IMG/VR virus record: IMGVR_UViG_3300002092_001378
Span: 37,757 to 101,756 of that record
DNA from: a virus
Strand: one strand, 5' to 3'
DNA length: 64,000 nt
The notes below the pieces were generated by a model, which was not told the DNA's origin, ran no database searches, and saw only the letters and a program-made list of their open reading frames with translations. Positions 42,455 to 43,076 of the stretch are shown here, one piece after another; the first letter of the stretch is position 1; the number at the start of each line of letters is the position of its first letter. The position numbers and the translations under genes are program-made.

Positions 42455-43057
42455 TTATTCATCTAAATCCTCATCTTCCCATGCAGTCATCGTTTTAGAG
42501 TCCACAATAACTCCTTCAAACTCAGGATTTAGGAAGACTTCCTTACCGTTTATGCCTTCACCATACCATTGGTAATAAGGATTATCCTCTGATAATATCT
42601 CAAACTGATTGGGATATGTCATTGCCAACATAGTTAGATCATCTTTCTCAATCTCGATGACATAGCTATTACGTCCGCAGCCGCCCGCAAACTGCATACA
42701 GACGCCATGCTTGATGCCATTATGTTGTAACAACCAAAGGAATTCATTTTTATAACGGAAATGGATTCTTGTTGGTAATAATGCTGTGAGTCTTTCTCTA
42801 TCCTCATCAGTCAGTTCAGTAATTTCAGCAGCACCATCTTCAAGTCGCAGCAATGCGTTCTTGAACTTGATAGCACCTTTGGTACGAACATTGAGGGGAG
42901 TTTCTTTGGTAGTCCAGGGCAAGTTAGAGGTTACGTGATCTACGTAATATGTCTTACCTTTTGCCATTACAATCCACATGGGAACGGTGGAGTCTTCTAA
43001 GTGTTTCTTATTAAAGTGAAACACGATATCCTTACATGCAAGTTCAATCTAGGCCAT
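42455..43057 (-). CDS. Hypothetical protein with in-frame TAG at codon 3 (amber read-through candidate)
   Basis: TAAGGAG-N8-ATG GCC TAG ATT GAA CTT GCA TGT AAG GAT ATC GTG continues in frame into ORF 42455..43024. The alternative start is GTG 43024. Confidence 0.7.
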
Positions 43058-43076
43058 TGTTAATTCTCCTTATTGT

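Follow-up and report, generated by a model that had tools for sequence, protein, structure and literature searches.

The window analysed here, a stretch of 64,000 nucleotides from a virus (IMG/VR record IMGVR_UViG_3300002092_001378, positions 37,757 to 101,756), carries on its minus strand a gene that we call gene X (42455-43057), in which the third codon is an in-frame amber stop. The minus strand reads TAAGGAG-8 nt-ATG GCC TAG ATT GAA CTT GCA TGT AAG GAT ATC GTG. The Shine-Dalgarno (SD) sequence TAAGGAG is at 43066-43072, 8 nt ahead of the start codon ATG at 43055-43057; codon 2 is GCC, and codon 3, which we refer to as the gate, is the TAG at 43049-43051, with ATT as the next codon. Behind the gate the frame is a 197-codon open reading frame (ORF) that runs to a TAA at 42455-42457 with a second TAA beside it (42457-42452 together), giving 200 codons in all when the TAG is counted. 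An earlier note on this DNA had described an SD sequence, 8 nt, ATG-GCC-TAG and a long ORF in one frame, and the letters bear this out. RNA folding around the gate gave z = 0.36, and no readthrough-stimulating or stable structure was predicted there.

The same note had placed an amber tRNA about 700 nt upstream of gene X. ARAGORN and Rfam both detected a tRNA with the anticodon CUA, a predicted amber suppressor, at 43744-43815, on the strand of gene X and 687 nt upstream of it. No other tRNA was found in the contig. This one is 72 nt long, with an encoded CCA end, the anticodon loop CUCUAAA, a G1-C72 pair and G73. Its build is compact: a single base links the acceptor and D stems, the D loop has 5 nt and the variable loop 3 nt; A-A mismatches occur at the ends of the anticodon stem, and the GG and TTC elements are kept. 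The label 'Pyl' that ARAGORN gives to this tRNA comes from the anticodon alone. The compact type is common to five homologous loci (L015, L016, L034, L076 and L082), while most other tRNAs of the family are ordinary molecules of 74-77 nt with A73.

The window is part of a single virus contig of 101,756 bp with 39% G+C from freshwater/lake metagenomes. CheckV puts the completeness of this contig at about 29% of the genome. Since the contig is this large and its completeness this low, the source is a fragment of a jumbo phage.

Homologues of gene X were collected from a protein database (104 entries) and from IMG/VR (399 confirmed stretches). The gate was counted in 79 IMG/VR loci with readable N-termini, which share 41-83% identity; 59 of them are non-redundant, and 54 of these are gated. 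In 73 of the 79 loci the gene reads ATG, one to four variable codons (nine in one locus), TAG and then [I/V]-E-x-A-C-[K/R]-[D/E], and the TAG is found at codons 3-5 in most of the 54 non-redundant gated loci. Codon 2 takes at least eight forms across the loci (TCA, GCC, GCA, TCG, AAA, CAA, AAC, TTA and others). The codon after TAG is ATT in 44 of the 54, ATC in 5 and GTA in 5, and a purine therefore follows the stop in every case (49 times A, 5 times G). The SD sequences are of the AAGGAG or AAAGGA type, and their spacing is matched to the ATG, not to the TAG.

The earlier note had expected homologues to extend through the xIExACKD region with a sense codon, such as one for glutamine (Gln) or lysine, at position 3. 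The conserved region is there, but the sense codon was never found: neither CAA nor CAG stands at the gate position in any of the 79 loci. The six loci without TAG lack the leader altogether and begin ATG-[I/V]-E, with the SD spacing unchanged. Since the position holds TAG or is absent together with the leader, and is never a Gln codon, it is the stop codon itself that is under selection and not glutamine, and the unit 'x-TAG' appears to act like a cassette inserted behind the initiator. In a quick maximum-likelihood tree, with three short rows included, the gate-less forms were scattered and four changes were needed to explain them, at least two of which were forced by well-supported branches. 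For example, L060, which has no TAG, is the sister of L059, which has one, at 99% in the Shimodaira-Hasegawa-like approximate likelihood ratio test (SH-aLRT).

The TAG might be a sequencing or assembly error, as the earlier note had allowed, or gene X might be a pseudogene. Nothing but the presence of a stop codon speaks for this, and its probability is practically nil: 73 of 79 diverged loci from independent metagenomic assemblies have retained the TAG, far beyond chance, while the neighbouring codons vary. Moreover, the frame behind it is intact and conserved, and the source-sample contig shows 0 differences from the window across 42300-43881.

The CUA tRNA is linked to gene X in the relatives as well. 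ARAGORN finds one within 2.5 kb and on the same strand in 59 of the 79 loci, almost always upstream of gene X. In some relatives the distance from tRNA to ATG is only 15-36 nt, and in four loci (L047, L050, L038 and L075) only 15-28 nt, the SD sequence included, lie between the CCA end of the tRNA and the ATG. Such a gap leaves little room for a separate promoter and suggests a common tRNA-mRNA precursor. For 15 records in which ARAGORN had given no nearby CUA tRNA, two of them gate-less, we used a covariance model built from 40 tRNAs of the family. A CUA tRNA was found in 14 of the 15, three times inside the locus itself, where ARAGORN had missed it (L046:2132-2204, L017:~1605-1676 and L039:~2388-2462). 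Published counts of phage suppressor tRNAs may thus be underestimates. The records with a gate-less gene X also carry a CUA tRNA. No other protein family was common to more than 15 of 60 gene X neighbourhoods. In three relatives ARAGORN found a permuted gene for transfer-messenger RNA (tmRNA), a further element of translation rescue, directly beside gene X (L039:3309-3791, L061:3049-3464 and L074:1239-1632).

A tblastn search of GenBank phages detected the N-terminal domain of protein X in cultured alphaproteobacterial phages. Rhizobium phage RHph_I1_18 has an unannotated gene X of 82 codons that begins SD-ATG-AGT-GAG-TTC-ATG-TAG-AAC, with TAG as codon 6, and a tRNA-CUA begins 12 nt downstream of this ORF. 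The complete 171-kb genome otherwise uses the standard code, with ORFs of at least 100 amino acids under genetic code 11 covering 92% of it, and gene X is its only ATG-led, SD-preceded gene with an early TAG. In the jumbo phages Phosso and Atu_ph07 the X domain forms the C-terminus of a protein of about 175 residues. This protein is encoded last in an operon with overlapping starts, behind the peptidyl-tRNA hydrolase PTH2 and a small gene of no assigned function; hhalign showed no relation between the X family and this small middle gene. The annotated starts of PTH2 (Phosso, PV764938, L013:465-878; Atu_ph07, MF403008, L014:470-881) lie too far downstream, as they are preceded by about 20 conserved in-frame residues, and the first start codon met is an SD-ATG about 20-50 codons upstream of the annotated starts. 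A single stop codon stands between that ATG and the conserved part. From that upstream start the Phosso operon opens SD-ATG-AAG-TAT-TAG-GTT, and the phage carries a tRNA-CUA. The operon of Atu_ph07 opens with ATG, four codons and then TTT-TGA-ATT, and the only suppressor of this phage is a tRNA-UCA (PMC6102473). The gate stop thus matches the suppressor anticodon in both phages, as decoding by the phage tRNA would predict.

Within its own contig gene X stands alone. The earlier note had proposed a gene-specific switch and not genome-wide recoding, and had suggested a scan of the rest of the genome for similar early in-frame TAGs. The pattern GGAG-N4-10-ATG-NNN-TAG-R has a single match in the 101,756-bp contig, in gene X, and the reversed-pattern control has 0. 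A looser scan of the contig (a start codon, a TAG after no more than 12 codons, and an open frame of at least 60 codons behind it) gave no other case with a strong SD sequence, an ATG and a real gene. There was no credible internal TAG in the contig's ORFs of at least 120 codons, giant structural-type ORFs included, and its large ORFs are all intact in the standard code. In two near-complete relatives (93% and 100% complete) gene X was likewise the only real gene that matched SD-ATG-NNN-TAG-R; a second match in G005 and a match in G002 were rejected as chance, because short or closed frames follow them. Gene specificity is thus supported within the 101.7 kb, which make up about 29% of the genome, and within the pattern scan of the two relatives. 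A crude scan for internal TAGs in the flanks of the homologous loci was too noisy to tell which relatives are recoded.

These scans bear on the possibility that TAG is a sense codon, as in genetic code 15, in the unseen 71% or so of the genome, and that gene X merely has one such codon. Several observations agree with it. Only about 29% of the genome is in hand, recoding in phages is in many cases restricted to late or lysis regions (bioRxiv 10.1101/2021.08.26.457843), and this phage encodes a tRNA(CUA). TAG is also depleted as a stop, since 82 crude gene calls of the contig end in TAA 55 times, in TGA 21 times and in TAG only 6 times. In the protein database, many homologues are called as M-[A/S/T/K]-Q-[I/V]-E, and the M-A-Q forms were evidently called under code 15. 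If TAG were an ordinary Gln codon, however, interchange with CAA or CAG would be expected, and it was seen in none of the 79 loci; the gate-less forms drop the position altogether. RHph_I1_18, whose genome is complete, uses the standard code apart from gene X, the pattern scan of the two near-complete relatives shows only gene X, and the 101.7 kb hold no internal TAG even in the giant structural-type ORFs. We give this explanation a small chance.

Translation could also start further downstream, regardless of the tRNA, and ATG-GCC-TAG would then be irrelevant. The earlier note had pointed to a GTG (43022-43024, minus strand) as an alternative start with an AAGGA only 4 nt ahead of it, which is seen in the sequence, and gene callers chose starts of this kind, at later Met or Val codons, in many database entries (forms of 190, 174 and 170 residues). 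Besides the GTG, the conserved Met27 or Met31 could serve. In the homologues the GTG behaves as a valine codon that is not conserved as a start: among the 54 gated non-redundant loci the position is GTG in 29, GTC in 14, GTT in 6 and GTA in 5, and thus something other than GTG in 25. Of the 54, 21 lack any ATG, GTG or TTG in the stretch from the TAG to the invariant FHFNK motif. The idea that homologues begin at the GTG therefore fails. Furthermore, the segment after the TAG, [I/V]ExAC[K/R][D/E]xV, is conserved as protein, and residues 4-16, which such a start would skip, are conserved and form the long first strand, beta-1, of the modelled fold. The strong SD sequence is spaced for the ATG, while the distance from AAGGA to GTG is too short for good initiation. 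A shorter protein X is, on these grounds, very improbable. We also considered the TAG itself as an initiation codon for an initiator-type tRNA(CUA) and rejected this, as the SD spacing fits the ATG and as the tRNA has G1-C72 and an anticodon stem without the run of three G-C pairs.

Alternatively, ATG-GCC-TAG could be a two-codon minigene or upstream open reading frame (uORF), with protein X made by re-initiation at AUU or with an effect through peptidyl-tRNA drop-off, in either case independently of the tRNA. The minigenes of the lambda bar sites act through peptidyl-tRNA drop-off, and a peptidyl-tRNA hydrolase, PTH2, is linked to the X domain in jumbo phages. The weak start codons ATT and ATC follow the TAG in 49 of the 54 loci, and the gate-less forms have ATC, ATA, GTT or GTA at this position. 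A usable start at or just after the TAG, which re-initiation needs, is nevertheless lacking in five loci, where the codon is GTA and cannot initiate. The exchange of isoleucine for valine (ATT to GTA) points to an internal residue under selection, and the variability of codon 2 speaks against the sequestration of one specific tRNA. Nor would this reading explain why gene X is nearly always linked to a tRNA-CUA, or why a TGA gate is paired with a tRNA-UCA in Atu_ph07. A minigene or uORF has, in our judgement, only a slim chance of being the explanation.

What was observed directly is the anatomy of the sequence, its conservation, the linkage to the tRNA and the match of stop and anticodon in the related operon. 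Judged from these, gene X probably has a suppressor-dependent amber gate. Translation would start at the ATG at 43057, and the ribosome would reach UAG at codon 3. Without a suppressor, release factor 1 (RF1) would release a dipeptide and no protein X would be made. Once the phage tRNA(CUA) is transcribed, processed and charged, an amino acid would be inserted at the UAG and the 200-residue protein X would be made. Because the gate lies in a short variable leader ahead of the folded domain, any inserted residue would probably be tolerated. The identity of this residue would then not matter, in agreement with the variety seen among the linked tRNAs (A73 or G73, compact or ordinary). A failed attempt at the gate would cost only two codons. 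A purine after UAG is a context that favours suppression in classical Escherichia coli work, and the UAG-A context found here would favour suppression over termination.

The tRNA and the mRNA of gene X would most likely come from one precursor, given that they are on the same strand and that the tRNA abuts the SD sequence of gene X in many relatives. The suppressor-dependent gate would then work as a coherent feed-forward (AND) gate, in which the suppressor must build up before any protein X can appear, and expression that is leaky or too early is damped. The same design has been engineered to remove leak from toxic genes, and by this analogy protein X may be harmful if it is made too early.

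Several points weigh against a suppressor-dependent gate. The expression and charging of the tRNA, the readthrough and the role of protein X are all deduced from sequence. A 654-nt gene stands between the tRNA and gene X in this phage, so that co-transcription here is predicted and not observed. The sole metatranscriptome contig maps to 43122-43289, in this neighbouring gene and outside gene X. No client of the tRNA other than gene X is visible, and gene X has no constant partner apart from the tRNA. The covariance model found no CUA tRNA in G007, a homologue record that is 27% complete. Other genes that contain TAG may lie in the unseen 71% or so of the genome, and only two phages stand behind the match of gate stop to suppressor anticodon.

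Searches of Pfam and PHROGs gave no family for protein X. The AlphaFold model of the whole protein has a predicted local distance difference test score (pLDDT) of 84 and shows two domains. The N-terminal domain (residues 1-85; 42803-43057, minus strand; pLDDT 90.5) is all-beta and is the conserved core of the family. The C-terminal domain (residues ~94-175; 42533-42778, minus strand) is alpha/beta and ferredoxin-like, similar to ACT or RRM domains. Its best VIA match was an ACT domain (Z 6.0, root-mean-square deviation 3.1 over 74 residues), which is a generic similarity only. A wide VIA search gave no fold match for the N-terminal domain (best Z 3.5), and Foldseek against PDB gave nothing at E <= 0.001 for the whole protein or for this domain. 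The part of protein X that is open under code 11 had no usable match in the ESM Atlas.

A profile search with the N-terminal domain returned 145 clusters at 50% identity in three architectures: with the C-terminal domain described here, alone, and behind a helical extension of about 100 residues. Residues 27-55 (42893-42979, minus strand) carry a WW-like motif, PMW..G.TYYV.H....W..ETP, and the profile of the X family cross-matches eukaryote-like WW-repeat proteins at 1e-10. Protein X did not qualify as a WW domain (PF00397): the best E value was 0.039, the score was 13 bits against a cutoff of 26.9, and 4 of 31 members were matched. The likeness to WW domains thus seems to be in the motif only.

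The associations of gene X point to a function tied to translation, as it is nearly always found with a tRNA-CUA, with PTH2 in jumbo phages and with tmRNA in three loci, all of which is association only. It is possible, and we put this forward tentatively, that protein X is a translation-associated factor that acts with the suppressor tRNA; its near-obligate co-occurrence with tRNA-CUA, even where it is ungated, and the link to the PTH2 operon suggest this. A larger proposal is that tRNA(CUA) together with protein X makes up a switch of the genetic code that is self-contained and reinforces itself, with protein X as a new translation factor that promotes UAG decoding, inside a wider suppressor-gated regulon of large phages that includes PTH2. 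A trickle of readthrough would yield protein X, which would then raise readthrough, for example by antagonising RF1 or by aiding the suppressor tRNA, and the gate stop of the regulon would be whichever stop codon the phage suppressor reads. We consider this proposal rather unlikely.

On the minus strand, the gene between the tRNA and gene X is a GATase/BPL_N-like gene (43077-43730; Pfam BPL_N 7e-13). In lake-relative contigs from two metagenome runs, positions 43744/43754 are joined to 43057/43058 with only 34 or 174 nt between them. As these independent lake contigs run from the tRNA straight to gene X, the GATase/BPL_N-like gene is an insertion. Independent lake runs also extend over the gate. 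Upstream of the tRNA is a DUF2201 metallopeptidase/VWA-like gene (43824-45146, minus strand; Pfam DUF2201_N 3e-35). Its stop is a TAG (43824-43826) 8 nt ahead of the tRNA, and readthrough would add 13 codons that run into the tRNA. The minus strand shows no terminator-like site from 45150 to 41400, and the genes may thus share a transcript. The region's strongest sigma-70-like promoter match (45132-45159, minus strand; TTGACA-16-TATTAT with TG) lies across the listed GTG start of the DUF2201 gene, from where transcription of the entire minus-strand unit could be driven. The 101.7-kb contig, about 29% of the genome, showed no PTH2 gene, and a blastn search with the region found no match among GenBank phages. 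Four of the homologous loci (L025 at ~590 on the minus strand, L030, L033 and L046) contain a 400-codon frame with an internal conserved TAG. This frame was rejected as a further gated gene, since it consists of two adjacent in-frame genes in which the TAG is directly followed by an ATG. A suppressor would fuse the two; the arrangement could be chance, as the loci belong to one clade of close relatives.

Large phages with the standard code commonly carry suppressor tRNAs, for which gene X would be a concrete and conserved client. A search rule for further clients follows from it, namely a stop codon a few codons behind a strong SD sequence and an ATG. If the suppressor-dependent gate is real, it is a naturally occurring example of translational gating in which a dedicated tRNA controls one gene, a design that synthetic biologists built independently, and such a gate may be a stage before genome-wide recoding. 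Annotation pipelines would have a reason not to truncate or skip such genes; in the GenBank record of RHph_I1_18, gene X itself has no annotation. As the module occurs in cultured phages, it is directly testable. We found no description in the literature of an early-stop gate coupled to a suppressor tRNA, and several known systems come near to it.

The gene prfB for RF2 has an early in-frame UGA that is bypassed by a +1 frameshift and senses RF2. As in prfB, the early in-frame stop of gene X would tie synthesis to the state of the decoding and termination machinery; unlike in prfB, the frame would be kept at the gate and the stop read by a dedicated tRNA. In code-15 phages (crAss-like phages, Lak phages and others), TAG is read as Gln, phage suppressor tRNAs are present, and stop-codon recoding has been proposed to regulate the timing of expression (bioRxiv 10.1101/2021.08.26.457843; PMC9523058). 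Here too a phage tRNA(CUA) would read an in-frame TAG of a phage gene in a standard-code host. In contrast to code-15 phages, a single gene is concerned and not many late genes, and the genome otherwise terminates at TAG. Moreover, the TAG of gene X belongs to a dispensable leader just behind the start, Gln codons never take its place, and the gene is physically coupled to the tRNA. XacN1 and Atu_ph07 are closer in that they are standard-code phages with a single type of suppressor tRNA. XacN1 carries a tRNA-CUA for which the authors could not identify target genes (PMC5852040), and for the tRNA-UCA of Atu_ph07 the authors only note abundant UGA stops (PMC6102473). Both papers considered readthrough of terminal stops, whereas the client here has its stop a few codons after the start. 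The nearest counterpart is an engineered one: Ho et al. (Nucleic Acids Res 2020, PMC7969014) placed an amber codon directly after the start of toxic genes and, together with a co-regulated suppressor tRNA, removed the leak. In that circuit, as is proposed for gene X, the amber codon sits right behind the start and the protein needs both the mRNA and the tRNA. The circuit is synthetic and was built in E. coli with supP, whereas the gate of gene X is natural, conserved in diverged phages and apparently contained in one transcript with its tRNA.
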